Below, piece by piece: positions 17,786 through 56,806 of a stretch of 64,000 nucleotides of DNA. Every line of letters starts with the position of its first letter. Position 1 is the first letter of the stretch. Below the pieces are notes generated by a model that saw nothing but the letters and a program-made list of their open reading frames with translations, ran no database searches and was not told the DNA's origin. Position numbers and translations under genes: made by a program. Source of the stretch: Acidobacteriota bacterium (lineage in GTDB: Bacteria > Acidobacteriota > Vicinamibacteria > Marinacidobacterales > Marinacidobacteraceae); NCBI GenBank assembly GCA_022826825.1, contig JAJDUD010000008.1, forward strand, positions 11,643-75,642, read 5' to 3'.

Positions 17786-18826
17786 GTGACGGCGGCTAGG
17801 ATGCACCCATTGGACGTCGTTCTCAGCGTCGTGTTTTGTGTCCTTTTCCTTGCCGCAATCGGGCTCAGTTTCCGAAGCGGGTCCCGAGTCACTGTTGGGA
17901 CGCTAGTGGGTGGAGGATTGGTAGTCGTCGCCGTTGTTGTCCTGCCTCTCGAGAGCTTGGAATGGAGTCCTGACGGTGGAATCAGAGTCCAGACGCGGGG
18001 GCCACGAATGCGGAATGTTGAAATCTCTGTGCACAGCGTGGCGGAGGGTATTGACACGGAGCAGCTCCACGTGTTTCTTGTACCAGTTCAACATAAAGCA
18101 GTCACCCAGACTAGAAGCGGTGACACGTTCTTCTCGTTCGAAAATGTGCCAGAGGGAGCGTACAACGTGCTTCTAGCGGACCGCGCAGGGCACTTTCTGT
18201 TGGAACCTCGTACAGTGGCAGGCGACCCTACATTGGATTCAATTGACCGGTTCCCGCGGGGAATCAACGTAAGCGGGGAAGTAAGAGAACTTACAGGGCG
18301 TCCCCTGGCAAATGTCGCAGTTGGTCTGGGAGACAACGTCGCGTGGACCAGGGCCGATGGATCCTCTGGTATCGAGGGAGCCCAATCCGGCGAACGTCAA
18401 CTGCGGATACTAGGTCGTGCACAATCACTAGAGCCGATCGAGCTGGGATCAGAAGATGTGGATGCCGGAGTTCTCTATTGGCCCGACCCCGTGCGAGACG
18501 CCCAGTTTTGCGAAGAGATTCAAGTGACTGAGGATTCGGAAGGCGAGAAGAGGTGGGTATTGGTTGACCCGTCACAGACGTTTTCCCCGGACGTTGAACG
18601 TGTGTACTTCTATACACGTGTAGTGGGTGCTACAGCACCAACACAGATAATACACCGGTGGATTCATGACGACACACCTGTTGACGTCCCTCTTGATATC
18701 GAGAGCAACGATTACCGTACAAATAGTTCTCGTCAAATCGATCGAAAGCAAGGCGAGTGGAAAGTACAGGTATTGTCGAAGTCCGGAGATATTCTCGCAA
18801 CCAGGGCTTTCTGGGTTGGAGAATAG
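17786..18826 (+). CDS. membrane-anchored protein with a DUF2914-like C-terminal domain, inside a lower-GC islet
   Basis: N-terminal TM helix followed by beta-rich domains. The tail (VERVYFYTRVVGA...IIHRWIHDDTPV...GEWKVQVLSKSGDILATRAFWV) resembles the DUF2914 signature. GC is markedly lower than the flanks. Confidence 0.4.
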   Translation: MTAARMHPLDVVLSVVFCVLFLAAIGLSFRSGSRVTVGTLVGGGLVVVAVVVLPLESLEWSPDGGIRVQTRGPRMRNVEISVHSVAEGIDTEQLHVFLVPVQHKAVTQTRSGDTFFSFENVPEGAYNVLLADRAGHFLLEPRTVAGDPTLDSIDRFPRGINVSGEVRELTGRPLANVAVGLGDNVAWTRADGSSGIEGAQSGERQLRILGRAQSLEPIELGSEDVDAGVLYWPDPVRDAQFCEEIQVTEDSEGEKRWVLVDPSQTFSPDVERVYFYTRVVGATAPTQIIHRWIHDDTPVDVPLDIESNDYRTNSSRQIDRKQGEWKVQVLSKSGDILATRAFWVGE

Positions 18827-18919: not shown

Positions 18920-19333
18920 TTGTTTCCCACGATGAAGAAGCTACCATCGTGGGTGTTACCTACTCTGGTTGTAGGAGTGCTCCTTGTTCTGTCCTCCCTC
19001 TTGCTGGTGCGCCTATGGAGTTCGGTGGTCCTTCGGGCTCCATTTTTCGGTCGTTTGGAACCCGCCACGCTCTCGGCCCTTTCCCTCCAAGTCGTCTTAC
19101 TGTCCGCGTTCATTACGCTGTCGAGCTTCATGGTTGCCATGATCGCGTTTCTTGGCTACCGCCAGATCAAGGAGGCTGCGGTGCAGAAAGCCGTCACCGC
19201 AGCAGTGGATAAGTGCCTGGAGCGAACCGACACTGCCGTAAGTGAACGTCTGAATGAGGTTCTTGGATCCAGGGTAGAAACCGGGCCCTCTCCAGAACCA
19301 GAACTAACCGAAGAGGTCTCCGAGGAGGTCTAG
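18920..19333 (+). CDS. small two-TM membrane protein with an acidic coiled-coil tail; true start may be MKKLPSW at 18932
   Basis: Two hydrophobic helices, then a KEAAVQKAV...EEVSEEV tail. The stop lies 2 nt before the ImmA-like gene start. Confidence 0.4.
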   Translation: MFPTMKKLPSWVLPTLVVGVLLVLSSLLLVRLWSSVVLRAPFFGRLEPATLSALSLQVVLLSAFITLSSFMVAMIAFLGYRQIKEAAVQKAVTAAVDKCLERTDTAVSERLNEVLGSRVETGPSPEPELTEEVSEEV

Positions 19334-19335
19334 GG

Positions 19336-19818
19336 ATGGACAAGGAAGAATTGCTGGAAGTCATCCGGTCCCACCAGAAGGAGGCTCCGGTACCCGTCTT
19401 TAACATTGCGCGAGCGATGGGACTGACGGTACTTCGTGCCCGTTGGCCCGACGAGTGGCAGGACAAGATTTCTGGGCAAATACAACGAATCCCTGAGACA
19501 GATCAATACCGGATTCTTCTGAACGCGGCGCATCCACTAACCCGGCAACGGTTTACCTTGGCCCACGAGATCGCCCACTTCGTTCATCACAAGCATCTGA
19601 TCGGAGATGGCATCACTCACGACGCCCTGTACCGAAGTCCACTGTCCACACCGCTGGAGCGAGAAGCAAACCGGCTCGCCGGGAACATTCTGATGCCTTG
19701 GAGCTTGCTTTGGCCCAAGATGTTTAGAGCAGAAACGGACGTGCGGGAGTTAGCGGCGGAGTTCAAGGTTTCTCCAGTAGCAATGGCCATCCAGACCGGG
19801 ATTCCCTACGAGCCGTGA
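19336..19818 (+). CDS. ImmA/IrrE-family (M78) zinc metallopeptidase
   Basis: HEIAHFVHH HEXXH motif in the ImmA/IrrE context, ...EREANRLAGNILMP..., about 160 aa. Confidence 0.65.
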   Translation: MDKEELLEVIRSHQKEAPVPVFNIARAMGLTVLRARWPDEWQDKISGQIQRIPETDQYRILLNAAHPLTRQRFTLAHEIAHFVHHKHLIGDGITHDALYRSPLSTPLEREANRLAGNILMPWSLLWPKMFRAETDVRELAAEFKVSPVAMAIQTGIPYEP

Positions 19819-20340: not shown

Positions 20341-22479
20341 CTATTTCGCTCGGCCGAGAGCGGGCCACAGCGTGACGACGAATCGCTCTTCACGGACCGG
20401 AATGCGCACACGGCCCCGCATTCCGTCGTAAAGCGCGTGTTCCGCGCCGGTGCTGCTCAACAAGACCTCCGGCAGGTCCGCATACACGAGGGCCAGCGCC
20501 CCATCTTCGGTCCCCGTGGGCAGGAGTTGGCCCATAAGCGCTCGCGCCTCTTCCGCGCTGATTACCTCCGGGCTGACCTCGCGGGCCTCGAGATGGAAGC
20601 GGCTTCCCGGGAACTGTTCCAGTTCGGCCACCACCGGGATCCCGGACGCGAGCAGGGGACGGAAGTTGCCCGGCACGGCGGCCACGATCTCGAAACCCGC
20701 ACGGGCGGCCCGCACCGTAGCCACCGTCTGGCCGGGATTCACGAGCGTCCCCGGCCTTACCCGTACGTCCGTCAGCACCCCACCCACCGGCACGATCAAC
20801 TGCCGTTCTTCAAGATCCGTCCTTGCCTGTTCGCTCGCGCCGCGCAGGGCCGCGAGCCCATTCCCCACCGTGGGATCCTCCGGGTTCCGCAACAGCCGCA
20901 CCAATGCATCCTCGTACTCGTGCTCTAGGCGCCGCACCTGTGCGAGTTCCGCGTGGTCGTAGAGCGTGCCGATGACGTCCCCCGGAACGACCTCCGTCTG
21001 GGGAGCGATGTGGATGGCCGCCACCGTGCCCGCCTCATTCGCCACCACAGGCACCCGTCCTTGGCTGTGGACGACCGCCATCCCCTCCGCGTACTCGGTG
21101 GCCGTTCCGAAGATCAGGAACGCCGCAAACGCGAGCAGCAGTGCCGCCATGCCGCCCACGATCCAAGATCCCCACCGCTCGGAAACGTTCAGGATGGCGC
21201 TCGGGCTCTCGGAGCGCCGCTGTTCCGCGATCGCTTCGGCGCGGAACACGGATGAGTCCACTCCGACCTCCCCTTGAAGCCGGTGGTATTCCCGAAGGAC
21301 AGCGAGCGGCGGAGCGAAGTCGCTGGCGAGCCGGCGCGCCGTATCCAACAGTTCCGGTCGGAGATGGTCGTGGGCGTCGGCCGCGTGGCACGCGAGCACC
21401 CCAAACACCGTCCCCGAATGGTCCCGGATGGGAACTGCCATCAGTCCGTGTCCGGCCCCTGGCACGAGATCCAACTCCGGATCGAAGAACACCGCGTCCT
21501 CCACGCGTTCTTCGAGCACCGCCACCCCAGACCGCGCGACGTAGGCGATCATGCCGAGCGCCGCGCTATCCGCGAACTCCTCCTGCTGCACGGCGTGGGG
21601 TCCCAGAAGAACCTCCGCCCAATCGTCGTAGGCGTACACCGTCGCCGTGATGTCCGGCATTCGCCGCTCCGCCTGAGCCGCCAAGTCCCGCAACGCGCTC
21701 TGCGCCGCACGTCTCTGTCCACGACTCGTGGCGTCGTACCACGCGAATGCCGGGAACCCGTCCTCGGTGTCCGGTCTCGGGTGAACGAGTTCGCGAAAGA
21801 CCCGCCGGAAGACAGCATTTTCGAGCGCCGCCACCGCCAGCGGGCCGAGGCGGTCCGGGTCCGGCCACCCACTGCATGCGAAGAAAACCTCGCCGGAACC
21901 GACGATGTCGCTCCAGCGGTCGGACATCACGCCCCCGCTTGCGACGAGAATCGGCCGAAGTCCGGGCAGTCGTCGGACGGTGGACCGCACCGACGCGACA
22001 TCGGGTGCCCGGTCTGGCGCACAGCCCAGCAGCAGGGCTCCCACGCTCTGCGGGTTCTGTACTTCCCGCGCGTGGACGATCTCGATCCCCTGTAGGGCCG
22101 GCGTCGCGCGACAGGGCTCGATCGCCCGTTCGTCATCCACGGCGAGGACCACCGGGACCCGGTTCGCAGCCGCGAGGGGAGAACTCGTCCAATCCTCCAC
22201 CAGCGTGAGAACCAACATCTGCACCGCGTTCTCACCACTGCCGTGCGCTGCACCCAGCCGCAGGTCCGCAACTACGGACCAAGCGCTGCCGTTGCCGGAA
22301 CCGAGACGGGCCGTGATCTCCATTCCTTCCATCGCCCCGTCGCGCACCATCACCGCCTCCGCATCCCGGACACACACCCACACCACGCCGGGACCCAGAC
22401 AACATACCCACGCGGGTAATGAAGCACCACCTGCTACCCGAAGCTGCGCAGGCCCTGAGACCCGGCGCCAGCCCTTCAC
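20341..22479 (-). CDS. fusion protein: N-terminal cytoplasmic region with a pseudo-receiver-like segment and a GAF domain, then a TM helix and a CvaA/LcnD/HlyD-type bacteriocin membrane-fusion domain
   Basis: The C-terminal 320 aa begin SVFRAEAIAEQRR...WIVGGMAALLLAFAAFLIFG, the classic N-terminus of CvaA/LcnD-type membrane fusion proteins, followed by a long periplasmic coiled-coil/beta region. The preceding ~390 aa include a GAF-like block (MIAYVARSGVAVLEERV...GLMAVPIRDHSGTVFGVLACH). 4-bp overlap with the upstream ABC gene. Confidence 0.6.
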   Translation of the reverse strand: MKGWRRVSGPAQLRVAGGASLPAWVCCLGPGVVWVCVRDAEAVMVRDGAMEGMEITARLGSGNGSAWSVVADLRLGAAHGSGENAVQMLVLTLVEDWTSSPLAAANRVPVVLAVDDERAIEPCRATPALQGIEIVHAREVQNPQSVGALLLGCAPDRAPDVASVRSTVRRLPGLRPILVASGGVMSDRWSDIVGSGEVFFACSGWPDPDRLGPLAVAALENAVFRRVFRELVHPRPDTEDGFPAFAWYDATSRGQRRAAQSALRDLAAQAERRMPDITATVYAYDDWAEVLLGPHAVQQEEFADSAALGMIAYVARSGVAVLEERVEDAVFFDPELDLVPGAGHGLMAVPIRDHSGTVFGVLACHAADAHDHLRPELLDTARRLASDFAPPLAVLREYHRLQGEVGVDSSVFRAEAIAEQRRSESPSAILNVSERWGSWIVGGMAALLLAFAAFLIFGTATEYAEGMAVVHSQGRVPVVANEAGTVAAIHIAPQTEVVPGDVIGTLYDHAELAQVRRLEHEYEDALVRLLRNPEDPTVGNGLAALRGASEQARTDLEERQLIVPVGGVLTDVRVRPGTLVNPGQTVATVRAARAGFEIVAAVPGNFRPLLASGIPVVAELEQFPGSRFHLEAREVSPEVISAEEARALMGQLLPTGTEDGALALVYADLPEVLLSSTGAEHALYDGMRGRVRIPVREERFVVTLWPALGRAK

Positions 22480-24710
22480 GAATCGTCTCCTGTAGTTCCG
22501 CCCTGCTCAGGCGCCCGTACGAGCGACGCGTATTCACCGTCCAGACTCAGCAGGTCTCCGTGTCTGCCCTCCTCAACGAGATGTCCCTCCTTCAGGACGA
22601 AGATACGGTCCGCGTTGCGGATTGTGTTCAGCCGCTGGGCGATCACGATCCTCGTGCAAGCCAGCCGCGCCAGCCGCGCCTGGATCTTCGCCTCCAGCTT
22701 CGTGTCCAGATTGCTCGTCGCTTCGTCCAGAATCAACACCGGAGGCCCGGTGGCCACCGCCCGCGCCAGCGCCAGACGCTGCATCTGTCCTCCCGAAAGG
22801 AGGAACCCGCCATCGTAGAGCATCGTGTCGTAACCCAGAGGCAGTTTCGCGATGTCATCGTGTATGGAGGCAAGTCGCGCGGCCTCAATCACCTCCGCGA
22901 GCGACATGTCCGGGTTGCCGAGCGCGATGTTCTCGCGAACAGTATCCGCCGCATACCAGTCAGTCTGTGTCACCGTGCCGATCCTGCGACGCACCTCCCG
23001 AAGGTCCAGGGTGGCGAGATCGGTTCCCGAGTACAACACGTGCCCGTTCGTGGGTTCGTAGAGTCCGAGCAACAGTTTCGCCACCGTGGACTTCCCCGCC
23101 CCCGACGGCCCGACGAACGCAACAAATTCCCCCGGGTGGATCGTGAAGGAAACGTCCTGCAAGATGTCCGGGCCCGAATCGCTGTAGCGAAACGTAACGT
23201 GCTGCATCGAGACCGTCCGTGGGTCCACATCCGTCCCAGACCCACGCACCCGACGCTCCGGTTCTGTCTCGATCACGTCCTCAATCCGGTCCACGTAGCT
23301 ACCGAGCAGGTAGATGGACGAAATCGTTCCCACTAGTTTCGACAGCGGTCCCAGGAACCCCATCGCGAAGGCGTTCATCGCCAACATGACCCCAAGGGTC
23401 ATGTGGCCGTCCAGGACGCGCATTGCCCCAACGATGAGAATCAGCATGCCGCCCACGCCCGAGAGCGCACCAGTGATGGCCCCCACGGTCGCGTTGAGAC
23501 GGTTCTGCTCGATCCCGATGTTCAACTCCTTCACGAACAGGTCCGTCCATTTCCGGGCCACCTCGCGCTCCGCGCCAATGGATTTGAGCGCCTCCATTCC
23601 CGAGAGCATCCGCACTTGGTAGCTCCGTGCCTCGGCCTGCCGTTGTATCGACTCCGAAACGAGTTCGCGCAGACGAATTCGCGTCACCGCGAACACCGTG
23701 ACCCGCAGCACGCCGAGCAGCACCACGAGCCCGGCGACCACCACGTCCGTCAGCAGCATCAGGACCAGGTACGACAGCACGAACAGCCCGTCGAGAACCG
23801 CGGAGAATGCCGTTGAGGTCAGCGCACTGCGGATCTGCACATGGCTGTTCATCCGCAGCATCAGGTCACCCGACGAGCGGTTCTGGAGATATGAGAACGG
23901 CAGGTCCATCAGCCGTTCAACGAACGATACGGTCAGCCGGGCGTCAATTCGCGACATCACCTCCACCGCAAGCCGCGAACGTACGAAGGAGAACAGCGTC
24001 GAGAACCCGGCGATCCCGATCAGCGCAATGGCCACCGTCAGCAGCAGTCCCTGGTCTTCCCGAGGTACGATTCGGTCCACTAGTAACGCCGTGAACAGCG
24101 GAATTGCCGTTCCGAGCACCTGGATCGCTGCCGACATCGCGAGAAGCTGCGGCAGGTGTCCGGAGCGCAGGATGACTCGCGCGTAATCACGCAGGACACC
24201 GCGTCCACCGGCCTTTTGCGTCCGGAACGTGTCCGTCGGCCACAACTCCACCGCCACCCCGGTGAAGTTGCGGCTGACCTCCTCCCAGGTCACGATCCGG
24301 CGGCCCGCCGCCGGATCCATTACCCGGATCCCCCGTTTCACGACCCGGTCCAGCACCACGAAGTGGCTAAACCGCCAGTGCAGGATCGCGCCGCGCTGCA
24401 GGCGGCGCAGATCCTCGATCGCATCCACCCGCAGGCCCCGTCCAGCGAGCCCGTGCTGCTCGGCGAGATGCAGCAGATCCGCGGCGTTTGTCCCATCGCG
24501 GCCCGCGGTCAGGTGGTCGCGGAGCGTATGTACGGGAATGTGTTTGCCGTGGAACGCCAGCACGCTCGCCAGGCCGGCGAGACCGCACTCCGTCGCGCCG
24601 GTCTGCTGGACCACCGGCACGGACCGTGGGCGACGGAGCGACCCGATCCCCGTGACCCGCGGTAGCGAGCCCAGGAACGACGGACGCGAGGGCTCAGCCA
24701 TCGGTGTCAC
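22476..24710 (-). CDS. lanT: peptidase-C39-domain ABC transporter (double-glycine leader-cleaving peptide exporter, LanT/CvaB-like)
   Basis: N-terminal C39 domain with catalytic Cys (QTGATECGLAGLASVLAFHG), a six-TM ABC exporter domain, Walker A GPSGAGKST, signature LSGGQMQR and Walker B ILDEATS. Confidence 0.85.
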   Translation of the reverse strand: MTPMAEPSRPSFLGSLPRVTGIGSLRRPRSVPVVQQTGATECGLAGLASVLAFHGKHIPVHTLRDHLTAGRDGTNAADLLHLAEQHGLAGRGLRVDAIEDLRRLQRGAILHWRFSHFVVLDRVVKRGIRVMDPAAGRRIVTWEEVSRNFTGVAVELWPTDTFRTQKAGGRGVLRDYARVILRSGHLPQLLAMSAAIQVLGTAIPLFTALLVDRIVPREDQGLLLTVAIALIGIAGFSTLFSFVRSRLAVEVMSRIDARLTVSFVERLMDLPFSYLQNRSSGDLMLRMNSHVQIRSALTSTAFSAVLDGLFVLSYLVLMLLTDVVVAGLVVLLGVLRVTVFAVTRIRLRELVSESIQRQAEARSYQVRMLSGMEALKSIGAEREVARKWTDLFVKELNIGIEQNRLNATVGAITGALSGVGGMLILIVGAMRVLDGHMTLGVMLAMNAFAMGFLGPLSKLVGTISSIYLLGSYVDRIEDVIETEPERRVRGSGTDVDPRTVSMQHVTFRYSDSGPDILQDVSFTIHPGEFVAFVGPSGAGKSTVAKLLLGLYEPTNGHVLYSGTDLATLDLREVRRRIGTVTQTDWYAADTVRENIALGNPDMSLAEVIEAARLASIHDDIAKLPLGYDTMLYDGGFLLSGGQMQRLALARAVATGPPVLILDEATSNLDTKLEAKIQARLARLACTRIVIAQRLNTIRNADRIFVLKEGHLVEEGRHGDLLSLDGEYASLVRAPEQGGTTGDDS

Positions 24711-24740
24711 CTGTCGTCTTCCGGATCGGAGCGTCGGCGA

Positions 24741-25688
24741 TCACTCTTCGAGAGATCCGGAACAGTCGAGAGCTAGCTCACCTTCGGCCAGTTGCGGAAC
24801 GGCCAGCACGCGCACCGGAGTTCCGGCCGGGAGTTCGTCCGAGCACAGGAGCGCCTCAAAGGTGTGCAGGAGCGTGCGAGGATCCAGTTCGGGAGAGGCG
24901 TGTATCACGAACCCGAGCACCGGCTCATGGTCCTCGAAGGTCACGGTGATCGGCGCGCCGGCAGAGAGTCCGATGGTCGCCTCGGGCGGCGCCGCGAAGC
25001 GAACGTGCCATTCGCCCGCTTCGATCGCCACCACGGGCGCCCCCCGCGTGTCGTACATCCCAGGCGAGCCGTACACCTGGTCCACCACGCCGCCTAGCGG
25101 TGCGCGCAGCGTCGCCTTGGCCGCTTCGGCGCGCGCCTGTTCCGCAGCCGTTCGCGCAGCCCCAAGTCGCGCCTCGGCGGACTCCAGACGCGCCCGGGAC
25201 ACCTCCACTTCGGCCTCCACTTCCTCGAGTTGTTCCGTAGAGAACAGCTCGGAGCGTCCCTTGCGCCGCGTGTAACGGCTGGCGGCCTGCTCCATCTCCA
25301 CCTGTGCAACCCGCAGCGACGCCTCCACTTCGGCGACTGCTGCCTGCGCCACTGCAAGAGTCCGGTCCACCGATTCAGAGTCGAACCGCGCTACTGGTTG
25401 GCCCTCCTTTACCTCGTCCCCCGGCTGTACGAACCGCTCCAGTAACCGGGCGTCAAACGGCGCCGGCACAACAATCCGCCGCTGCCGTACCACGACCCCG
25501 ACATGACCGTAGTTCGCGGGAAGCAGGCCCGGGACTGGCCTACCCACACTCACTCGTCGCTGCGACCCGGATGGCACCGGACCCGGACGCCGCCGTTCCG
25601 GTTCGCTGCCGTCGCCACAACCGACCCAGGCAGCGAAGGCGACCAATCCCGTCGCCAGAAACGCGCCATGTGCTGCTCTGTAGCTCAC
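24741..25688 (-). CDS. HlyD/RND-type periplasmic adaptor lipoprotein
   Basis: GTG start gives a signal with lipobox AAWVGCG. Coiled-coil hairpin, then ATLRAPLGGVVD, a typical adaptor beta-barrel motif. The start overlaps the lanB stop by 4 bp. Confidence 0.6.
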   Translation of the reverse strand: MSYRAAHGAFLATGLVAFAAWVGCGDGSEPERRRPGPVPSGSQRRVSVGRPVPGLLPANYGHVGVVVRQRRIVVPAPFDARLLERFVQPGDEVKEGQPVARFDSESVDRTLAVAQAAVAEVEASLRVAQVEMEQAASRYTRRKGRSELFSTEQLEEVEAEVEVSRARLESAEARLGAARTAAEQARAEAAKATLRAPLGGVVDQVYGSPGMYDTRGAPVVAIEAGEWHVRFAAPPEATIGLSAGAPITVTFEDHEPVLGFVIHASPELDPRTLLHTFEALLCSDELPAGTPVRVLAVPQLAEGELALDCSGSLEE

Positions 25689-28600
25689 CGTTTCGCGCGC
25701 GCCACCAACGAACGATAGGTCCGGCTCAGGAAATCGTAAAGCACCAACTCGTGCGCTCGCGCCGACATGGGAAACAGCCGGTTCGCGTGCATGTGGGTCA
25801 GGGTTTGCAGCAGTTCTTCGAGTGGGCATTCGAGGTCACCAGACTCCGCCAAGTCCCGGAACTGTCGGACTACCTCCTTGGTGTCTTCGGACCGCTGCTG
25901 CAGGACGGCATCGAATCCGGCGAATCGGGAGTCATCGTCCGGGTATCCGGTAACCGCCGCTTGGATATCCCGGCGCTCCGCCCGCAGCCGTCTCGCTAGG
26001 CGCCGCCGTACACTGGGGCCCACTCCGAACTCCTGTCCGAACGACTCCCGCGCCCCGGCAACAACCTGGTTTCTTTCTCCGTAGTCCAGTCCGAAGTCTG
26101 CAAGCAACCGGTCAAAACCCATCGCCACTGCCTTCCACCGGAGGACTTCATCCTCCACCCCGTCGAGCACTCCGACGACCTGGAGCGCCGCCACACTGTC
26201 CGCCCGAAACCACGCTTCTGCCAGTTCGATCCCCCGCCCCCCGCCATAGCGTTCGACCTCGCGCACGTAGGTGTCGAGGCTCACGCGATGGACGGCACCG
26301 GTGGCCAAGAACGGCTGGAGGAGCGCCGACATCCGTTCTTCCAGCGCCCGACGAGCATCCGGCCCGCCTCGAAACCGGACGCGCAAATGGTGTTCCGGGT
26401 CTCCGTACCGGATGAAAAACCACGGCTCACCCGTCGCAGTGGCTCCGTGGAGCGCTGCCAGCGGCGCGACGACCTCGCGGAGCAGCCGATCCGCCGTGCC
26501 AGCGGCAGCGTAGAGCTTGTAGTAGAGCCACTCGTCTCCCGGGATGAAGGCCCGGGAAGCGATTGGTGCCGTCACGTTCCGCTGCTTTACGCCGTCTTCC
26601 CTGACCGAGGGCGCGGCCCGCTGCCTGCGCACGAGCGGAAGGATGAACTCGTTCCGGTAAGTCCCCTCGGGGCCGCTAACGCAGCCTTCCAGATCCTCAG
26701 CGAGCGTCTCCTCTAGAACCAGGGTGGGTCGGCGCGCCCCATGATCCGCCAGCACCGCCACGCACATCGGGTTGTCCAGATCCAGCAGCAGACGGTTCTC
26801 CCCATCGACGAGACGAACGAAACGCGGAAGCTTCAGCTCCCGAACCAGGGCCAACAGTGCGTCCTCACGGGCGGCGGGCTTCTTCGCCTTCGCAATGGCT
26901 TTGTACTCCGGACGATTGCGTCCCACCATCCAGCGGGCAAGCGCGTAAATGGCACGACCCCGGGTCACTCGCGGCAGGAACGGAAGTCCGTTCAGCACCC
27001 CCCAGTTCCAGCTGAACCCCGGCGCCGTCCCGTCGTTCTGGAGCGCGCATAGAAACCGATACATCCCGGAACTACGTCGATAGTTGTGGGCTGAGGTAAG
27101 GCGTGGGCGCACGATCCTGCCGTCCTGACGCGAGCGCAGCCGAAAACTGCTACCCTCCAGACTCAGCAGCAGATCGTCCACGGTCAGCCGCTTCGGACCG
27201 GTGAGCCGCGAGTTACCGCTACAACTCAACTCGATGTCGCGGACATGAGGTCGTCGCACGACATTGCCGACTCTACCCTCCGGTGTGTGCACGATTTCGG
27301 CATAGACCACCCCGGGTTCCAGCGCCTCCTCATCTCGAAGGTGGCCGCGCACCCGCTCGAGCAACACGGGGTCGAGATCGCAGAACCTTCCCAGCAACCG
27401 GCCACCCGACGGGCCGAAGCCGCCGTGATAGAGGATCCGATATGCGCCGCTCTGCACGGCCTCCTCAGAGGCAGCCACTAGATCAAAGTGGAGTGCCACG
27501 GCCGCTGGCAGAGGGCTCTGAACCGAGGTCGCGAGGCGTGTGAGCAGGTCATCGTCCAGTTCGAGACTCGCTGGGGCTTCACCCCGGAGGTCCAGGAGGC
27601 GCTCCATCAGCGCGTCCGGCACGCCCTGCTGAGGGCTTTTTCCGCGGTTGCCCTCTGCCCCGATGTTGAGGCCGGCAAGGAGCGGCGATCCTGACTGACG
27701 TGGTCGCAGATCCGGACCAGGCACACCGAGTCCCCGTTCCGGATCGAAAACCTCTGCTAGCGGAACCTCGCGTGTCTCGTACCGCTCCCGGAAGCGGCTC
27801 TTGAGGTCACGCAACGGATCCGGTAACCGCGTCATCAGGCGGTGTAACGTGTCGGCACCGCGAAGCACCTCGTCGACGACCTCCTCGGCGAGTTGCAACT
27901 CTTCGGTTTCCTTGAACATGTCCACCTGGAGGAGCCGCTCGGTTTTCTTCTGACCGAGAGGCCCGGTCCACACCGCGTTCACCGCCGCGTACGCCTCGGG
28001 TGGTGCCGCCACTCCATGCTCGTCGAGCTGGTCGAGCGCTTCGCGTAGCTGCCGGACCGGAGTGGCTGACTCGGACAGCGCCTCGCTCGCAGCGAGAGCC
28101 TGAAGGATCTGGTCCAGCGGATCGCTACCTACGACCGCAGGCACCAGCTCCGGCACGAGCACCTGCGACTCGATGAGGTCGTCAAGGTACTCGTCGATGT
28201 CGTCCGAGTTCACATCCGCATCAGTGATGGCGAGCGTCAACGCGGCATGTAATCCAGCCAGCGGCATCGCTTTCGCGGACCGCCGCTCCAAGGCGGCCGA
28301 AAGCGCTTCGTCATTCTCGAGAAACGCCATCTCGTGCCGGTTTTCGGGACCGCGCTGTCGCGCTTCCACATACTGGTACCCGCCCGCAATGGCCGCGATC
28401 GTGTCGTTGGGGCGGTAACGGAGATTCTTCCGGACTCCTTGTTGCCTCAGGAGGCTACCGACCAACTTGGCCACCTGCGCTTGGTCAAGTGCTGAGCGAC
28501 GCCGGTAACGGTCGCGCCCAGCAAGTCTCAGGCGCGTCAGTTCGCCTACGTTCCCCACGGATACACCGGCGAACAGGCCGAATGGCGTGCATCGGTCGCA

Positions 28601-28930
28601 CATCCGCGCGAAGTACTGGACGAGCGCTCGTTCCATCCGCGCCCGCCGCCGCGTAGGTGCTTGGTCGCCCAACCCGGACAGGCGCTCCGCGAGCACTGGA
28701 CTGGCGACCCGCAGCGCATCGGCCGCGTGCGGCAACGCCAGAGCCTCCACGAGAGTTCGCCGCAGCCGGTTCCTCGTGCCTGCTCCGTCACCCGCCGCAG
28801 GGGTTGCAGTTTGGCCACTGGCTCCCCAAACAGCAAAAGTGGCGGTGGGCAGTAAGGGCGTCCGTAGCACGAAAAACCCGGATGGCCGATAGCTGTCGGC
28901 GAAACCCGATGCCCCCGTCTCAGCTGTCAC
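25685..28930 (-). CDS. lanB: class I lanthipeptide dehydratase LanB (glutamylation plus elimination domains)
   Basis: 1081 aa. N-terminal SGFFVLRTPLLP is the canonical LanB opening. The C-terminal WFFIRYGDPEHHLRVRFRG matches the SpaB_C elimination domain. Confidence 0.85.
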   Translation of the reverse strand: MTAETGASGFADSYRPSGFFVLRTPLLPTATFAVWGASGQTATPAAGDGAGTRNRLRRTLVEALALPHAADALRVASPVLAERLSGLGDQAPTRRRARMERALVQYFARMCDRCTPFGLFAGVSVGNVGELTRLRLAGRDRYRRRSALDQAQVAKLVGSLLRQQGVRKNLRYRPNDTIAAIAGGYQYVEARQRGPENRHEMAFLENDEALSAALERRSAKAMPLAGLHAALTLAITDADVNSDDIDEYLDDLIESQVLVPELVPAVVGSDPLDQILQALAASEALSESATPVRQLREALDQLDEHGVAAPPEAYAAVNAVWTGPLGQKKTERLLQVDMFKETEELQLAEEVVDEVLRGADTLHRLMTRLPDPLRDLKSRFRERYETREVPLAEVFDPERGLGVPGPDLRPRQSGSPLLAGLNIGAEGNRGKSPQQGVPDALMERLLDLRGEAPASLELDDDLLTRLATSVQSPLPAAVALHFDLVAASEEAVQSGAYRILYHGGFGPSGGRLLGRFCDLDPVLLERVRGHLRDEEALEPGVVYAEIVHTPEGRVGNVVRRPHVRDIELSCSGNSRLTGPKRLTVDDLLLSLEGSSFRLRSRQDGRIVRPRLTSAHNYRRSSGMYRFLCALQNDGTAPGFSWNWGVLNGLPFLPRVTRGRAIYALARWMVGRNRPEYKAIAKAKKPAAREDALLALVRELKLPRFVRLVDGENRLLLDLDNPMCVAVLADHGARRPTLVLEETLAEDLEGCVSGPEGTYRNEFILPLVRRQRAAPSVREDGVKQRNVTAPIASRAFIPGDEWLYYKLYAAAGTADRLLREVVAPLAALHGATATGEPWFFIRYGDPEHHLRVRFRGGPDARRALEERMSALLQPFLATGAVHRVSLDTYVREVERYGGGRGIELAEAWFRADSVAALQVVGVLDGVEDEVLRWKAVAMGFDRLLADFGLDYGERNQVVAGARESFGQEFGVGPSVRRRLARRLRAERRDIQAAVTGYPDDDSRFAGFDAVLQQRSEDTKEVVRQFRDLAESGDLECPLEELLQTLTHMHANRLFPMSARAHELVLYDFLSRTYRSLVARAKR

Positions 28931-28963
28931 CTTGGCCGCGGTTTCACAAACTCGGAACTAGAC

Positions 28964-30214
28964 TCAGGATAAGAGCAACAGGCGGTCCCACTTCGGCTCG
29001 ATGTCCGTCGTCCCGGTCAGTAGTGCTAGCCCAACGCCCGCCGAGCCAGTGAGAAACGACCCATCATCTACCCAGCCTTGGCGATTCCCGCCTACATCAC
29101 CCCACATGCGGTAACCACCCACTCCCTGGTTTGGTCGCCACCAGTTCAGGGTCGCATCAACCCAACCCCTTGCCGCGTTTGCGAACTCCGGTTCATTGTC
29201 AGTGCGTGCAAGTCGATAGAAGATCTGGGCGTTTCCCGCCGCCCCATGGCAGAGTCCGGCGTCTCGAATCCAGGCCTCGCCGGGTCGGACGCGAGCGCAG
29301 GCAAGAGCCAAGGTCCGCGCCCACTCCACGCCCTCCTGATCCCCAATTGCTTTCGCCGCCTCGAATGCCACCGCTGACGCACCAAGTGGGCCGTAGCACC
29401 ATGCCATTCGGCGACTGACCTCGGGTTCAACGCCCGGCGCAATCCATGATGGCAACGACGCTTCGGTTGGGTCTGACTTGATTGCCCTGAGCCATCGCAA
29501 ACTATCCCGAAGCAAGGGCTCGGCTCGATCCGGCTCGACCCCGAAGGAACATAGCTTCCCCAGAAGCCCACACACCCCTGGCACGCCGTGTGCTACACCC
29601 AAGTTGTAGTAGCCAGCGGGTGCCAGTTTGCGCTGCCAAGCGGGCAGAAAGTCCGCCACCGTGAACCATGTCGTCCCTTCCTTAGTCTCGACCGCCATGC
29701 GCTCAAGCGCCTCAAGAACCAAGCCAAGGCCGCGGACTGCGGAGTCGCGAGGTAGTCGTTCTACGAAATAGACGCCGACACCAACCACGCCGCTGATCAG
29801 GTCGTAGACCCGCTGGTCCGACTGCCGTGCCAAGGCTTCTGCCGCTAACCGGTCCACATGGGTTCCCACGGCATCATCCTCAGCGTCCAAATGAGTCGTA
29901 AGCCAGCCTGGACCCGCCCAGCCACCGTACAGACCCAACTGGGTGGACCTTTGGATTCGATCAAGGTCCGCATCAATCAGCGTTGAGCATGCGTTGGAGT
30001 CATCTTGAAACACCTCCGCCATGTCGGCGTAGGCATGGAAGAGAGCGGCAAGCCCACCGGGGCGACGACGGAATCCGAAGGGTACATTGGATTCTGGTTC
30101 GACCGGTCGCCGCGCCATATTGACAAGCGCTTCCCCTATACCTTTCACAATCAACCTTGCGTTTGCTTTCGATCCAGTGGGCGAGAACGTCTCGCCGGTA
30201 GGCCGTTGGGTCAT
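28964..30214 (-). CDS. lanC: lanthionine cyclase LanC
   Basis: 416 aa carrying the three LanC zinc-ligand motifs GVAHGVPG, WCYGPLG and GLCHGAAGN. Confidence 0.85.
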   Translation of the reverse strand: MTQRPTGETFSPTGSKANARLIVKGIGEALVNMARRPVEPESNVPFGFRRRPGGLAALFHAYADMAEVFQDDSNACSTLIDADLDRIQRSTQLGLYGGWAGPGWLTTHLDAEDDAVGTHVDRLAAEALARQSDQRVYDLISGVVGVGVYFVERLPRDSAVRGLGLVLEALERMAVETKEGTTWFTVADFLPAWQRKLAPAGYYNLGVAHGVPGVCGLLGKLCSFGVEPDRAEPLLRDSLRWLRAIKSDPTEASLPSWIAPGVEPEVSRRMAWCYGPLGASAVAFEAAKAIGDQEGVEWARTLALACARVRPGEAWIRDAGLCHGAAGNAQIFYRLARTDNEPEFANAARGWVDATLNWWRPNQGVGGYRMWGDVGGNRQGWVDDGSFLTGSAGVGLALLTGTTDIEPKWDRLLLLS

Positions 30215-36178: not shown

Positions 36179-36319
36179 GGGAGGCGGCCTGGCGGTCCCC
36201 GGAACGGTGAGCGGTAGCGGCGGCAACGGGTTTCCTATACTAGGCGAGGTACGGCTCGCCGGGCTCCCCGCCGGATGACCGGATCGGATGACGCGCCGGC
36301 CCGCCGGGAGGCGAACGAC

Positions 36320-37045
36320 ATGGATCGCAGACTCTTTCTGAAGGCCGCGGCCACGGTGAGCGGCGCCGGTATCGTGGGCGTGAACGACCGCGCCGAAGCG
36401 CTCGAGCACGAGATGATGCACCTGCTCGAGGCCCCCGAGCGTCCGCCGCTCGCGAAGTCCGAGGACGAGGAACCGCTCTCGGTCATGCCGGCGAAGCCGA
36501 CGCTCCTCGATTTCTTCGAGCACCGCTTCGCGCCGGCCTCCCACGTGCTGCAGAGCGCCACCCGGGCGATGAAGCACGGCATGAGCGAGGAGATCATCCT
36601 CGCCTGCCTGCTCCACGACCTCTCGGTGATGAACCTGGTGCGCGCCGACCACGGCTGGTGGGGCGCCCAGATGCTCGCGCCGTACGTGCCCGAGAAGGTC
36701 TCGTGGGCCATCCGCTACCACCAGGCGCTGCGCTTCTTCCCCGACCCGTCCGTCGGCTACGAGTACCCCGAGATGTACGTGCGGATGTTCGGCGCCGACC
36801 ACGAGCCGGAGCCCTACATCAAGGCCGCCTACGAGTACGCCCGGAACCACAAGTGGTACATGGAAGCGCGGTCCATCACCATGCACGACGACTACAGCTT
36901 CGAGCGAGGTGCCGAGGTCTCGATCGATCCGTTCGTGGACATCATCGGCCGGCACTTCAAGCAGCCGAAGGAGGGGCTCGGCTACGACAACAGCCCCACG
37001 GCGCACATGTGGCGGACGATGATCAACCCGCGGCGGAGGTTGTAG
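36320..37045 (+). CDS. Tat-signal HD-domain phosphohydrolase-like protein
   Basis: MDRRLFLKAAATVSGAGIVG twin-arginine signal. HD motif (LLHDLS) with additional His residues. Confidence 0.55.
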   Translation: MDRRLFLKAAATVSGAGIVGVNDRAEALEHEMMHLLEAPERPPLAKSEDEEPLSVMPAKPTLLDFFEHRFAPASHVLQSATRAMKHGMSEEIILACLLHDLSVMNLVRADHGWWGAQMLAPYVPEKVSWAIRYHQALRFFPDPSVGYEYPEMYVRMFGADHEPEPYIKAAYEYARNHKWYMEARSITMHDDYSFERGAEVSIDPFVDIIGRHFKQPKEGLGYDNSPTAHMWRTMINPRRRL

Positions 37046-37064
37046 GGGGAGCTCAAGGAGCGCA

Positions 37065-37284
37065 GGGAGCGCCGGTCTTCAGACCGGCATCGCCCGCACA
37101 GCGGGCGAAACTCCTGGGCTTCACTTCGCCGCATGGCGCCCCCGTCAAGGCGAGTGGCGCGACGACAACTGCGCGCGCCTACTTCGCTTTCGCCATCTTC
37201 GTTTCGAGTCCCCGCAATGTGGCGCGATGGCGCCGGGAGTTTCGCGGCCTACGGCCGCGATGCCAGTCTGAAGACTGGCGCTCC
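37065..37284. mobile_element. MITE-like palindromic element (about 220 bp) with two-hairpin terminal inverted repeats
   Basis: Left end GGAGCGCCGGTCTTCAGACCGGCATCGCCCGCACAGCGGGCGAAACTCC. Right end GTTTCGCGGCCTACGGCCGCGATGCCAGTCTGAAGACTGGCGCTCC. The ends are reverse complements and each holds two stem-loops. Inserted about 20 nt after a TAG stop. Confidence 0.65.
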
Positions 37285-37340
37285 TTGCTTGTCCTGCGCA
37301 GCACCGTCCCCGTTTGGGGTAGCGCGGTGACCCGGCGCGC

Positions 37341-38734: not shown

Positions 38735-38830
38735 TCTGCCGTGAAAATGCAGCCTCGGCGGTCCGCCGACCGGTGTGATGGCTCACCGGCTGGACTGCAT
38801 TTTCAGAGCAACTGGCCGGCGTTCCTAGCG
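38735..38830. repeat. short palindromic element related to the terminal motif of the composite repeat
   Basis: GTGAAAATGCAG...CTGCATTTTCAGAGCAACTGG: inverted 12-mers flank a GC hairpin. CTGCATTTTCACA(R)CAACTGG also ends the copies at 9.5 and 52.3 kb. Confidence 0.4.
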
Positions 38831-39307
38831 GACCGCGATCATGTCGATCTCGAGGAGCGCGCCGAGCGGGATGTCGGCTACCGCCACCGTGGTGCGCACC
38901 GGCGGGATCGCGTCCTCCGGAAAATAGGACGCGTACACCTCGTTCATCGCCCCGAAGTCGTTCACGTCGGCAAGGAACACTCCGCTTCGGACCACGTTCC
39001 CGAAGCCGAGACCGGCCTCCTCGAGAACCGCCTGGAGGTTCTGCATGACCTGGTGGGTCTGCTCGGCGATGCCGCCCTCGACGAGTCCCCCGCCTTCGTG
39101 GTTGAGCGCGATCTGCCCGGCGAGGAAGACGATGTCCCCGTATTCGATTCCCGCGGAATAGGGACCGACGGGAGGGATGCGGCCGTCGAGGCGCGATTTT
39201 TCGGGCTTCGGGACTTCGACGTCCACGTTCACCGGCCCGGTGCAGGACAGGGCCAGGAGCGACAGCAGGGCGCCGCCGAGAGCGAGACGGGAACAAGAAG
39301 AGCGCAT
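38825..39307 (-). CDS. RidA/YjgF/TdcF-family enamine/imine deaminase with an N-terminal lipoprotein signal
   Basis: Internal ATG gives MRSSCSRLALGGALLSLLALSCTG, a lipobox. The C-terminal ...PVRTTVAVADIPLGALLEIDMIAV fits the RidA fold. Confidence 0.6.
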   Translation of the reverse strand: MRSSCSRLALGGALLSLLALSCTGPVNVDVEVPKPEKSRLDGRIPPVGPYSAGIEYGDIVFLAGQIALNHEGGGLVEGGIAEQTHQVMQNLQAVLEEAGLGFGNVVRSGVFLADVNDFGAMNEVYASYFPEDAIPPVRTTVAVADIPLGALLEIDMIAVR

Positions 39308-39359
39308 GGACAGATCCTCCGGGGATGGCGCCGGATAGTACCGGGGCATCTCGCTTACG

Positions 39360-39890
39360 ATGCCGCGCATGTGGGAGACGCCCCAACCCGGCGAGTGCGC
39401 CGACTACTACCACGGCTATATCCGCCAGGTCCCGGCCGGCGAAGATCTCCCGCAGGCGGCGCTCCAGGAAATGGAGACTCTCCGCTCCCTCCTGGCCGGC
39501 GTTCCCGAAGAGGCGTCGGCGCGGGGATACGCGCCCGGGAAGTGGTCCATCCGCGAGGTCGTGGGCCACGTAGCCGACGTGGAGCGCATCATGTCGGTGC
39601 GGGCGCTCCGCTTCGCCCGGGGCGACGAGTCGGCGCTACCGGGCATGGAACAGGATCCCTACGTGGCCGCGTCCGGCCACGGGGAACGCTCGCTCGAATC
39701 CCTGCTCGACGAGCTGGAGACGATCCGCCACGCCACCGTGAGCCTCATGCGGTCGTTCGACGAGACCGCGCTCGACCGGAGCGGGGAGGCAAGCGGCGCC
39801 CGCGCCACCGTGCGCGCGGTCTGCTATCTCACGGTGGGACACGCCATCCACCACCGGCGCGTCCTGGAAGAGCGGTACCTGGCGGCCTGA
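39360..39890 (+). CDS. DinB/YfiT-like (DinB_2) metal-dependent four-helix-bundle protein
   Basis: HxxxH...H arrangement (VVGHVADVERIMS ... TVGHAIHHRRVLEE) typical of the DinB_2 superfamily. Confidence 0.5.
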   Translation: MPRMWETPQPGECADYYHGYIRQVPAGEDLPQAALQEMETLRSLLAGVPEEASARGYAPGKWSIREVVGHVADVERIMSVRALRFARGDESALPGMEQDPYVAASGHGERSLESLLDELETIRHATVSLMRSFDETALDRSGEASGARATVRAVCYLTVGHAIHHRRVLEERYLAA

Positions 39891-48186: not shown

Positions 48187-48546
48187 TCAGGCGAACGGCA
48201 CGACCCGTGAACGGAGGATTCGCCGGTCGCGGGTGAGCAGGGGCACGCCGTAGGCCACGCTCGTGGCCGCAATCAGCTCGTCCGCAGGGTCGGCCCGGAA
48301 GTCCAGCCGGTTCATGGCGGCCGCCACCCGGAGATCGAGCGGCCAGACGTGGACCCGCTTCAGCCAGGACCGGAACTCCTGATCGTCCAGATCCACGGAA
48401 ATCCGCCCGAGCCGAGCCAGGGAGACGATCTCCCACAACACGATCGCGGCGATGCTCCACGGATGCGCCGCCAAAACGGCCTCTTCACGGGATCGGAGAT
48501 CGCCCGTGAACCCATGCAGCAGGACGTGGGTGTCAAGGTTGATCAT
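48187..48546 (-). CDS. vapC: PIN-domain toxin VapC
   Basis: MINLDTHVLL...: a 119-aa PIN domain with conserved acidic residues. Overlaps the upstream antitoxin gene by 14 nt. Confidence 0.7.
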   Translation of the reverse strand: MINLDTHVLLHGFTGDLRSREEAVLAAHPWSIAAIVLWEIVSLARLGRISVDLDDQEFRSWLKRVHVWPLDLRVAAAMNRLDFRADPADELIAATSVAYGVPLLTRDRRILRSRVVPFA

Positions 48547-51728: not shown

Positions 51729-51746
51729 CAGCGCCAGGGAGCGCGA

Positions 51747-52310
51747 GGAGCGCCGGTGTTCACACCGGCATCGCCCCGCGCCGCGGGGCGAAACTCCCGC
51801 CGCCATTCCTCCGCAGGTCGCGGCGCGCGACTGGGACGGCGCAGCGCCGTCGGGCAACATCCAACGACGTTTCGCCGTCCACGATGGAGCCCACGTGATG
51901 CGGAAGCAGAGCCGGGGGAGTTTCGTGGCCTGCGGCCACGATGCCGCACCCCCACCGGGATAAACACCCATGCGCGCGTCCTCCTACGCACCCCGCTTGT
52001 CATGAAAACAGCGGAAACGGCTGGGAACGCCGACCTCCGGTCGGCACAGCGGGCCGAAGGCCCGCGGACGACGTGCCGCTAATCGTCTCGGGCGACAGAG
52101 GTCCGGGAGCGTCCCCTTCGCCCGGTTGCACCGAGAGAGAACCATCCCGCAGGTCGGCGCCCCGCCGTGCGCTGCGCGGTCGCGCAGCGCGTGCCGACCA
52201 GAGGTCGGCGTTCCAAGCCGGCGGCGCCATCACGGCGGTTCACCGACCCGCCGGACTGCATTTTCACAGCAACTGGGCCTCGCCGCTCTCGGCGCTCACG
52301 TCACTTTCTC
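51747..52310. mobile_element. compound repeat: a right-truncated MITE copy followed by a B-module copy, the latter nearly identical to 9230-9545
   Basis: Starts GGAGCGCCGGTGTTCACACCGGCATCGCCCCGCGCCGCGGGGCGAAACTCCC about 20 nt after the amidase TAG. The second half GCGGAAACGGCTGGGAACGCCGACCTCCGGTCGGCACAGCGGGCCGAAGGCCCGCGG...CTGCATTTTCACAGCAACTGG matches the copy at 9.2-9.5 kb. Confidence 0.6.
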
Positions 52311-53478: not shown

Positions 53479-54555
53479 ATGCCCCAGACCGCCGCCGGAC
53501 GCCCGGTCCGGATCGACCTGCGCAGCGACACCGTCTCGCTCCCGACCCCGGAAATGCGGGCGGCGATGGCCGCCGCCGAGGTCGGCGACGACGTGTACGG
53601 CGACGACCCCTCGGTCCGCCGTCTCGAGGAGCGCACCGCCGAAGTCCTGGGCAAGGACGCCGCGGTCTTCACGCCCACGGGCACGATGAGCAACCAGATC
53701 GCCATCCGCTGCCAGACGGAGCCGGGGGACTTGGTCCTCGCCGAACGGCGGGCCCACGCCTACCTGGTCGAGAGCGGCGGTCCCGCCGCGCTCTCGGGCG
53801 CCACCATCGTGGGGCTGGAAGGGGAACGAGGCGTCTTCTCGGCCGAGCAGGTTCGGGCGGCGGTGCGGACGCCGCACCCGATGGTGCCGGACGCCTGCTA
53901 TCCGGTGGCCCGACTGCTCGCCGCCGAGAACACGCACAACGGGGCCGGCGGCGCGGTCTGGCCGCTCGATGTCCTGCAGGACGTCGCGGACACCGCGCGG
54001 GGCCTCGGCCTCGGCACCCACCTCGACGGAGCGCGCCTCTGGCACGCCACCGCGGCCACCGGCATCCCCGAGAGCCGCTACGCCAGCGGTTTCGACACGG
54101 TGAGCGTCTGTTTCTCCAAGGGGCTCGGTGCGCCGATGGGTTCCTGCCTCGCGGGTCCCGCGCCCCTGATCCGGCGGGCGCGCCGCTTCCGCCAGCTCTT
54201 CGGCGGCGGTTTCCGCCAGGCCGGCATCGTCGCGGCGGGCGCCCTCCATGCCCTCGAACACCACCGGGAACGGCTCCCCGAGGACCACCGCCGGGCGCGC
54301 CGGCTGGCCGAAGGGCTGGGCGAACTGTCCGGGACCTCCGTGGACGTGGACGGGGTGGAGACGAACATCGTCCGTTTCCGGACCCCGGGGATGAACGCCT
54401 TCCGGCTCGCCGAAGGGCTGCTCGACCGCGGTATTGCGGTGCTGCCGGCGACGCCGGACGCCATGCGGGTCATCCCGCACCTGGGCATCTCCGACGAGGA
54501 CGTCGAGGAGGCGCTCGGCGCCTTCGCCGAGGTCCTGAGCGCGGTCCCCGCGTAG
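53479..54555 (+). CDS. ltaE: low-specificity L-threonine aldolase / beta-eliminating lyase family PLP enzyme
   Basis: [14 protein letters not shown] is the canonical LtaE N-terminus. [11 protein letters not shown] holds the PLP-lysine. Confidence 0.7.
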
Positions 54556-54569
54556 GGCTCGCCGAACTC

Positions 54570-54790
54570 CGGCAGCCACCGTGGCGCGCCGGCTTGGAAC
54601 GCCGGCCTCCGGCCGGCACGCGCTGGCCGCAAGGCCAGTGCACGGCGCTCGTTGCTTACCCTCACGGGCCCTCCGAATCCATAGGGAGCGCCGGTTCGGC
54701 CTGGCTCACGCGCACCGGAAGAACGGGCCCGGCCTCCGCCGGTTTGAGGGGCCGAAACGCGCCCGGAACGTGCTACCGTCCGCCGCTCGT
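54570..54790. repeat. degenerate copy of the palindromic repeat family, reverse orientation
   Basis: GCGCCGGCTTGGAACGCCGGCCTCCGGCCGGCAC is the reverse-complement counterpart of GTCGGCGTTCCAAGCCGGCGGCGCC. Also contains GGGAGCGCCGGTTCGGCC. Confidence 0.3.
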
Positions 54791-56799: not shown

Positions 56800-56806
56800 C
56801 GGCAGC

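Follow-up and report, generated by a model that had tools for sequence, protein, structure and literature searches.

Repeats built from a module of about 60 nt with two hairpins were found in the gaps between genes of a 64,000-nucleotide stretch of an Acidobacteriota genome (assembly GCA_022826825.1, contig JAJDUD010000008.1, positions 11,643 to 75,642 of the forward strand), the whole of which is called the window below. Both hairpins of the module are under selection and are kept by compensatory change, and the family is confined to a clade of the Vicinamibacteria that forms a small group of marine and sponge-associated Acidobacteria. It is probably a lineage-specific extragenic family that works like repetitive extragenic palindromic (REP) sequences and bacterial interspersed mosaic elements (BIMEs) or REP doublets forming hairpins (REPINs), and it may be served in trans by an HUH enzyme resembling the REP-associated tyrosine transposases (RAYTs). 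The literature searched by sequence and by clade contained no description of this repeat, and the double-hairpin repeat appears to be an undescribed family.

A two-hairpin module in the gaps between genes

The original prediction had described positions 37065-37284 and six other loci of the window as a non-autonomous family resembling MITEs (miniature inverted-repeat transposable elements). That the family is real, non-coding and non-autonomous was borne out. A covariance model (R1), built from an alignment of 99 unique modules (A1) and run over the window with filters off and E<1e-5, matched 15 modules, spread over seven intergenic gaps. The left-end motif GGAGCGCC-RGTCTYCRGACYGG-CATCGC gave 5 matches in the window at no more than 3 mismatches and 0 in 100 dinucleotide-preserving shuffles. 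Repeat detection and self-BLAST recovered all seven loci of the earlier list, with three amendments. The loci hold two subfamilies, the second being a unit of about 318 bp made of a head-to-head pair of diverged modules that start with GGAACGCC; the locus 38735-38830 gave no R1 match and is a fragment only; and 56807-57420 is a tandem duplication of a block of about 320-346 bp, in which 56800-57065 is repeated as 57119-57411 at 81% identity.

The module consensus reads (G-C-Y-A) GGAGCGCC, hairpin 1, GGC-A-TCGC, hairpin 2, GCGAAAC-TCCC-(RYCGCCA), and the copies in the window read GGAGCGCC, hairpin 1, GGCATCGC, hairpin 2, GCGAAAC-TCCC. The bases before the head are a degenerate C(62%)-T/C-A(64%), GTAG being rare. 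Hairpin 1 has 7 bp and a loop of TTCA or TCC, and its stem is lineage-specific, with GGTCTTCAGACC or GGTGTTCACACC in some genomes and GGCCTCCGGCC in others. Hairpin 2 has 7-9 bp and occurs with several stems within each genome, one variant of which contains tandem G.A/A.G pairs; most of its loops are GCA, GAA or GTA with a closing C:G pair (GNA triloops), which we take to be the motif of the exceptionally stable d(C-GNA-G) DNA mini-hairpins. As single-stranded DNA, single modules are predicted to fold into the two hairpins, and the 227-nt dimer of the 37066-37284 unit into a structure of -82.5 kcal/mol (z = -8.45). An enlarged form, with about 20 nt more in the hairpin 1 loop (..CAGTTCTCCCGGTGGGG..), gave 85-nt model matches at L022 1862-1946, L062 5339-5423, L061 4580-4664 and L067 5645-5729 (L numbers denote the loci matched in the scans described below).

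In alignment A1, which was not fitted to any structure, 94.8% of the cells could pair, against 85.1% after shuffling and 33-46% with partners slid, and double-sided changes were seen in 8 pairs. A second alignment (A2) of 150 modules, aligned with the covariance model, gave 96% against 83% for shuffles and 25-50% for slid partners, with changes on both sides in 9 of the 15 pairs (258 cells); no shuffle reached these values. A2 leans towards the structure to which it was fitted, and the unfitted A1 agrees with it. Across genomes in which orthologous genes share only 83-86% identity, the unpaired linkers (GGAGCGCC, GGCATCGC and GCGAAAC) hardly vary, which points to continuing sequence-specific recognition. 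Among non-Watson-Crick combinations, G.T (7) was not in excess over A.C (12), so that the pairing is Watson-Crick on both strands, as for DNA hairpins, and pairing specific to RNA was rejected on the same counts. A closing stem GGAG:CUCC, which would have made a three-way junction, was dropped from the model, as it did not covary and its A:U pair was broken in 17 of 99 sequences.

The modules are extragenic, and the apparent intragenic cases were artefacts of over-extended ends of open reading frames (ORFs). Gap types were counted with a rough custom gene caller that uses third-codon-position GC content: the 48 classifiable clusters lay in 19 convergent, 23 tandem and 6 divergent gaps, and the 309 adjacent gene pairs of the background were 58 convergent, 184 tandem and 67 divergent, divergent gaps thus being depleted among modules. 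Relative to the upstream gene, 45 modules were placed head-first and 12 tail-first, with heads 0-60 nt, and often 0-30 nt, past the stop codon. Of the 57 genes with a module no more than 60 nt away, 36 ended in TAG, as did 110 of the 303 genes without one (Fisher p = 2e-4), and several heads overlapped the stop codon itself, as TAGGAGCGCC. Upstream of heads the heptamer GGAGCGC was repeated with a period of 9-16 nt, a pattern referred to here as the head stutter; across all loci 49 copies were counted in the 45 nt before the heads, where about 3 would be expected. Both the stutter and the TAG bias are reproducible and solid statistically, and neither is accounted for by the REP/RAYT model. At the repeat loci, neither canonical intrinsic terminators nor sigma-70 promoters were detected.

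Distribution, arrangement and age of the family

One genome per GTDB species was scanned with the pattern GGAGCGCC-N11-14-GCATCGC-N12-16-GAAACNYC, and at least 74 stretches matched. Among the 74 matches listed, 72 came from 11 metagenome-assembled genomes (MAGs) labelled Vicinamibacteria, "Candidatus Marinacidobacterium" (Acidobacteriota, class Vicinamibacteria) or Acidobacteria bacterium, and module-bearing MAGs thus number at least 11. MAG chromosomes, complete or nearly so, that bear the module include OZ219815.1/OZ219816.1, OY821641.1, OZ220713.1, OZ244986.1, CBDHFO010000017.1 and CAXXLQ010000004.1, the first five entries being from module-rich MAGs. Matches in Corynebacterium and in an Acidimicrobiaceae MAG were set aside as chance, having neither hairpins nor an R1 match. 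On the loci of the listed matches, R1 identified 215 modules in 582 kb. Farther than 1.5 kb from every seed match, modules still numbered about 42 per Mb, the window being denser (15 in 64 kb), and this value corresponds to a copy number of about 10^2 to 10^3 per genome, or hundreds in a genome of 4 Mb. The family therefore extends far beyond the copies in the window, as the original prediction had proposed to check.

The JGI metagenome collection gave 11 stretches, of which only those of LXNJ01 (L079 and L084) were full-strength, three others scoring 27-35 bits; the plasmid and phage collections gave no module match. The window is of metagenomic origin. A contig of the European Nucleotide Archive, ERZ23495295 (PANK22-1 scaffold_2395), has the 37-kb locus of the window at 98.2% identity, and the loci L026, L029, L036, L043 and L062 are orthologues of window segments, with nucleotide identities of 77-91%. 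The 37066-37284 unit aligned over its full length, at 75-81% identity, with dimers in L024, L039, L042, L066 and L068. The similarity is thus not restricted to short GC-rich palindromes, a possibility raised with the original prediction, since dimers of 165-235 bp in the window and in other genomes align with their interiors included. Further copies of the 318-bp unit were found in L035, L040, L043, L053 and L065. Rfam gave no matches at gathering scores over the whole window and chance-level matches only at E values up to 10 over two repeat loci; a match to MIR1437 was discarded because it reflects the long hairpin only. The search for tRNA genes run beside the Rfam scans found none.

Among adjacent modules less than 400 bp apart, 37 pairs were head-to-head, 50 head-to-tail and 6 tail-to-tail, and single modules made up 43 of 99 clusters. 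Most head-to-head pairs span about 165-235 bp, with their GGAGCGCC ends outward and a conserved interior. The bounding of positions 37065-37284 by a two-hairpin inverted repeat was as originally described: the 219-bp non-coding unit has ends of 48-50 bp with 94% complementarity, one of which reads GGAGCGCC GGTCTTCAGACC GGCATCGC CCGCACAGCGGGC GAAACTCC and the other its inverted copy, and in this it has the terminal inverted repeats (TIRs) of a MITE. Head-to-tail arrays, in which module and linker are repeated in tandem, were seen in L022 (six units of 142 bp), L012 (three of 93 bp) and L047 (units of about 84 bp). The material between the modules of an array is identical from unit to unit, which identifies these arrays as tandem duplications and not as arrays of clustered regularly interspaced short palindromic repeats (CRISPR).

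The inverted symmetry of the dimers runs about 3 nt past GGAG, through the variable CYA. No target-site duplication of 3 nt or more was found at the ends of 21 precisely bounded dimers (lengths 2-9, offsets -3 to +8), and the sole direct matches were internal GCGC palindromes. A TA duplication of the IS630/Correia type was rejected, as TA stood on both sides in only 1 of the 21 dimers.

Two further observations concern the surroundings of the modules. Beside modules and between them, the linker motif GGGGACGG(CGC) and its complement are found repeatedly (L022 1072-1830, L012 697-948, L047 5603-6002, L026 4120-4770 and window 37290-37320). At L032 1434-3259, inverted modules with their heads outward (1434-1497(+) and 1531-1588(+) on one side, 3196-3259(-) on the other) bracket a toxin-antitoxin pair, consisting of a PIN-domain gene (2731-3159) and an antitoxin-like ORF upstream of it, together with one more ORF; the ends lie 1.8 kb apart. 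This may be a cassette that inserted into a dimer, or else a sign that pairs of modules are able to carry cargo.

The suggestion of recent activity in the original prediction did not hold. Dimers at unlinked loci of one genome were 80-89% identical, with none above 93% and the only pair above 90% being a local tandem duplicate, and so there is no sign of a recent burst. Mean dimer identity was 77% within a genome and 69% between genomes. The gap 3' of an orthologous amidase gene holds differing module sets in the window, L029, L026 and L062, which indicates a turnover of module content over the time in which species diverge.

Two other orthologous gaps differed in length. Window 975-2252 is about 1.2 kb longer than L036 2746-2988, which holds two modules and a five-fold head stutter; the extra sequence includes an ORF (1048-2241; third-position GC 0.90, no Pfam match) that adjoins the module at 1021-1086. 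Window 54542-54744, between the genes for a beta-eliminating lyase and a transketolase, is 202 bp long and has a solo module, and the orthologous L062 1420-3133 holds about 1.7 kb of other sequence and no module.

Models for dispersal and retention

In the REP/BIME-like reading, copies would spread as folded single-stranded DNA, and a sequence- and structure-specific enzyme encoded elsewhere in the genome would cut and rejoin the folded modules. The most likely candidate would be a HUH Y1 transposase of the RAYT or TIRYT type, acting in trans. Modules might then be retained as stable 3'-end hairpins for convergent or tandem transcripts that lack canonical terminators. REP/BIME was taken as the model because the organisation of the family matches the REP catalogue of Di Nocera et al. 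(2013, PMC3733652), where head-to-head dimers, with spacers of 20-100 bp, are predominant, clusters are frequent and variants are specific to lineages. As in REP, BIME and REPIN families (PMC3733652; Bertels & Rainey 2011, PMC3116915), the modules are extragenic, reach hundreds of copies, prefer the 3' ends of genes, combine compensatory hairpins with invariant unpaired bases, make no target-site duplication and form lineage-specific variants. They also occur as singletons, as inverted dimers (with spacers of 20-100 bp or more in REPs) and as mosaic clusters. The REP-like structural role that the original prediction had offered beside the MITE label is thus the better fit of the two.

Several points weigh against this reading. 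The module consists of two different hairpins in about 60 nt, unlike the single hairpin of 20-40 nt of a REP, and the GTAG/CGTC tags by which REP superfamilies are defined are absent, with only a degenerate C-Y-A before the head; the family is therefore not filed as a strict REP, and is regarded as a REP/BIME-like variant. The module dimers are longer (165-235 bp) than those of REPs and have a conserved interior, and the 9-nt head stutter and the association with TAG stops are likewise unlike REPs and REPINs. Active REPIN populations usually hold many identical copies. Here, unlinked dimers have diverged to the degree given above, and no identical "master" copies were seen. No precise pair of filled and empty sites was recovered, so that mobility rests on the differing content of orthologous gaps. 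The 3'-end role in RNA is a putative one. Finally, no RAYT was found in the window or in the listed loci.

The search for a mobilising enzyme was negative in the window and in the listed loci. The absence of a transposase from the window, which the original prediction had stated, was upheld by Pfam scans of about 59 ORFs, by tblastn with Y1 transposase queries and by a RAYT motif scan. No Y1/HUH or other transposase was found in the 74 listed loci (about 590 kb, or about 650 kb with the window). When E. coli RAYT and IS608 TnpA queries were used in tblastn, the best E value was 1.1 and the underlying ORFs were ordinary genes; regular expressions for the HUH and Y..NP motifs gave no match. In an all-against-all clustering of 3,310 ORFs from the loci, the groups were housekeeping paralogues or translated repeats without exception. 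The genes that lie between inverted modules were considered as candidates and rejected: L032 has a PIN toxin-antitoxin pair there, L049 an asparaginase-like gene, L066 ETF genes and L054 an M20 peptidase/HipA pair. The cognate IS200/IS605 or RAYT partner for which the original prediction had suggested a search was thus not found in about 650 kb, and the link to such a partner is one that we infer. RAYTs are usually single-copy genes.

Other known systems resemble the family in part. The Acidobacteria in which TIRYT genes are reported belong to a class other than Vicinamibacteria. TIRYT genes are RAYT-like genes flanked by long TIRs, some of which are double palindromes, and they are reported in Acidobacteria (PMC3733652). 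TIRtrons and the TIRYT repeats resemble the present family in occurring as singles, dimers or clusters and in having some double-palindromic TIRs (PMC3733652). Their TIRs flank RAYT-like tyrosine transposases, whereas no TIRYT gene was found next to modules here, and they share a motif GGGGWSAS that the linker GGGGACGG resembles without matching; the supplements of PMC3733652 contained no sequence match to the module. The palindrome-associated transposable elements (PATEs) of IS200/IS605 likewise have hairpin-containing ends and no target-site duplication, and their mobilisation needs a single-strand HUH enzyme. The left and right IS200/IS605 ends are not inverted copies and have their hairpins on the same strand, in contrast to the inverted ends seen here, and in place of the fixed tetra- or pentanucleotide target of the PATEs only the degenerate CYA was found; the TAG association is suggestive and not fixed. 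Neither TnpA nor TnpB was found near the modules.

A classic MITE, that is an internally deleted insertion sequence (IS) of DDE type with 48-bp TIRs recognised by a transposase in trans, was considered very improbable. The dimers are small, non-coding and present at many loci, with long, near-perfect inverted repeats and a conserved interior. In being short, non-coding, TIR-bounded, intergenic, multicopy and able to form long hairpins they are similar to Correia/NEMIS, RUP and ERIC elements (reviewed in PMC10969869). Those elements, however, have a target-site duplication (TA for Correia) and a parent IS family, neither of which was seen here: none of the 21 dimers had a duplication, and neither an IS with these ends nor a DDE transposase was seen in about 650 kb. 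Unlike in those elements, moreover, solo ends and head-to-tail arrays are common here; about 43% of clusters are single modules and head-to-tail neighbours outnumber head-to-head ones, arrangements that TIR-dependent cut-and-paste does not make. The "TIR" itself is two hairpins with compensatory substitutions, which is a feature of single strands. In its strict sense the MITE label of the original prediction was accordingly not supported, singletons and head-to-tail arrays outnumbering the TIR-bounded units.

It is somewhat unlikely that the modules are non-mobile structural elements maintained by the host, either as a bidirectional 3'-end hairpin (a terminator or mRNA stabiliser) or as a binding site for a host protein, and multiplied by local duplication, slippage and recombination. 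The near-invariant linkers, the head-first placement just past stop codons and the gaps without canonical terminators would all be expected of such an element; tandem duplications and the 9-nt stutter show local expansion, and recent identical copies are absent. Whole dimers, however, are 75-89% identical at many unlinked loci and in different genera, which indicates that the sequence was dispersed and not reinvented. Orthologous gaps differ in their modules, and the counts of G.U and A.C favour no RNA strand. A structural role of this kind is compatible with the REP/BIME-like reading, as a later domestication, and may well be the present role of the modules. The stutter and the TAG bias, which that reading leaves unexplained, might instead indicate that the module is the substrate of a single-strand DNA nuclease or recombinase other than a RAYT, in a new mobilisation system. 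Such an enzyme would recognise the hairpins and linkers and insert next to TAG, as a rule at a stop codon, with the GGAGCGC stutter as its footprint; we consider both this system and this mode of insertion distinctly unlikely.

The idea of an array related to CRISPR, degenerate or orphan, or of integron attC sites can hardly be entertained. Hairpin 2 with GAAAC resembles the 3' half of some CRISPR repeats, weak Rfam CRISPR-DR matches occur at E values of about 4-5, and regular arrays exist (period 142 in L022 and 93 in L012). The "spacers" of these arrays, however, are mutually identical, modules lie on both strands and in inverted pairs, and GAAAC/GTTTC stands at the inner ends of dimers, which is unfit for attC core sites. 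The window has no cas genes and no integrase, no Rfam family reached threshold, and the flanking genes are syntenic housekeeping genes.

Repeat copies and other features of the window

The copies in the window are listed in Table 1.

Table 1. Modules, dimers, stutters and fragments of the repeat family in the 64-kb window
Feature	Position	Strand	Modules	Remarks
Solo module, degenerate type	1021-1086	-		GGAACGCC-GGTCTTCAGACC-GGCACCGC-TGCGCAAAGCGCA-GCGAAATCCC; R1 61.2 bits, E = 1.6e-15
Solo canonical module	9167-9230	+		Head abuts TAG stop of M20 peptidase gene 7875-9170
318-bp subfamily unit	9213-9530		9271-9334(+), 9406-9471(-)	Diverged modules, head-to-head, then tail motif GCATTTTCACAACAACTGG
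Head stutter	37048-37065	+		GGAGCTCAA GGAGCGCAG, two degenerate 9-nt head copies; begins 2 nt past TAG stop of upstream ORF 36275-37045
Canonical head-to-head dimer, 219 bp	37066-37284		37062-37125(+), 37225-37288(-)	Interior about 120 bp
Fragment, not a full module	38737-38830	-		Head-like TAG-GAACGCCGG, overlapping stop of RidA-like gene 38825-39370 (-), and inverted pair of the tail motif of the 318-bp unit (CTGCATTTTCA..CAACTGG)
Stutter	51729-51746			CAGCGCCAGGGAGCGCGA; directly after amidase TAG stop
Head-to-head dimer, right module truncated	51747-51956		51743-51808(+), 51906-51956(-)	
Second 318-bp subfamily copy	51962-52276		52020-52083(+), 52153-52218(-)	87% identical to 9213-9530
Solo diverged module	54592-54657	+		GGAACGCC-GGCCTCCGGCC-GGCACGCGC-TGGCCGCAAGGCCA...; R1 35.7 bits, E = 3.6e-8
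Solo head	54685-54699			TAGGGAGCGCCGG; shares gap with module 54592-54657
Head-to-head dimer, 178 bp	56807-56984		56803-56865(+), 56926-56988(-)	Starts 7 nt past transketolase TAG stop
Head-to-head dimer, right module decayed	57126-57334		57122-57184(+), 57272-57334(-)	

Four other features of the window were recorded. On the minus strand, 20341-30214 is occupied by the gene cluster of a class I lanthipeptide, where GC content is lower (0.59-0.67); it includes genes for a LanB dehydratase (25685-28930), a LanC cyclase (28964-30214), an ABC exporter with a C39 peptidase domain (22476-24710) and two HlyD-like proteins (20341-22479 and 24741-25829), and its precursor peptides may be encoded at about 30.2-31 kb. 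The segment 48168-48887, of about 720 bp, contains a gene for a PIN-domain toxin (48187-48546, minus strand) and, beside it, a small ORF; the segment corresponds to positions 4008-4013 of the collinear, orthologous L029, which is without the toxin segment, and represents the insertion or deletion of a toxin-antitoxin cassette. Between 18000 and 20000 the GC content drops to 55%, and this region, with genes for a DUF2914 protein (17786-18826), a small ORF (18920-19333) and an IrrE/Peptidase_M78-like protein (19336-19818), may be a foreign or regulatory island. Three tandem copies with a 33-bp period (15939-16042) lie inside an ORF (15451-16677, minus strand) with no convincing Pfam domain, and probably encode an 11-residue protein repeat.

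Vicinamibacteria are abundant in soils, sediments and sponges and are known almost only from MAGs, and we know of no description of their repeat content. A dense, highly conserved repeat that reaches 10^2 to 10^3 copies in each genome accounts for breaks in their assemblies. The module is a clade-specific marker, which also marks the 3' ends of genes without canonical terminators, and with its two hairpins and invariant linkers it is a ready substrate for finding the protein that binds or cuts it. If that enzyme is a RAYT or TIRYT, the REP-RAYT partnership reaches a further class, in which the module has a new design; otherwise the placement next to TAG and the head stutter point to something new.

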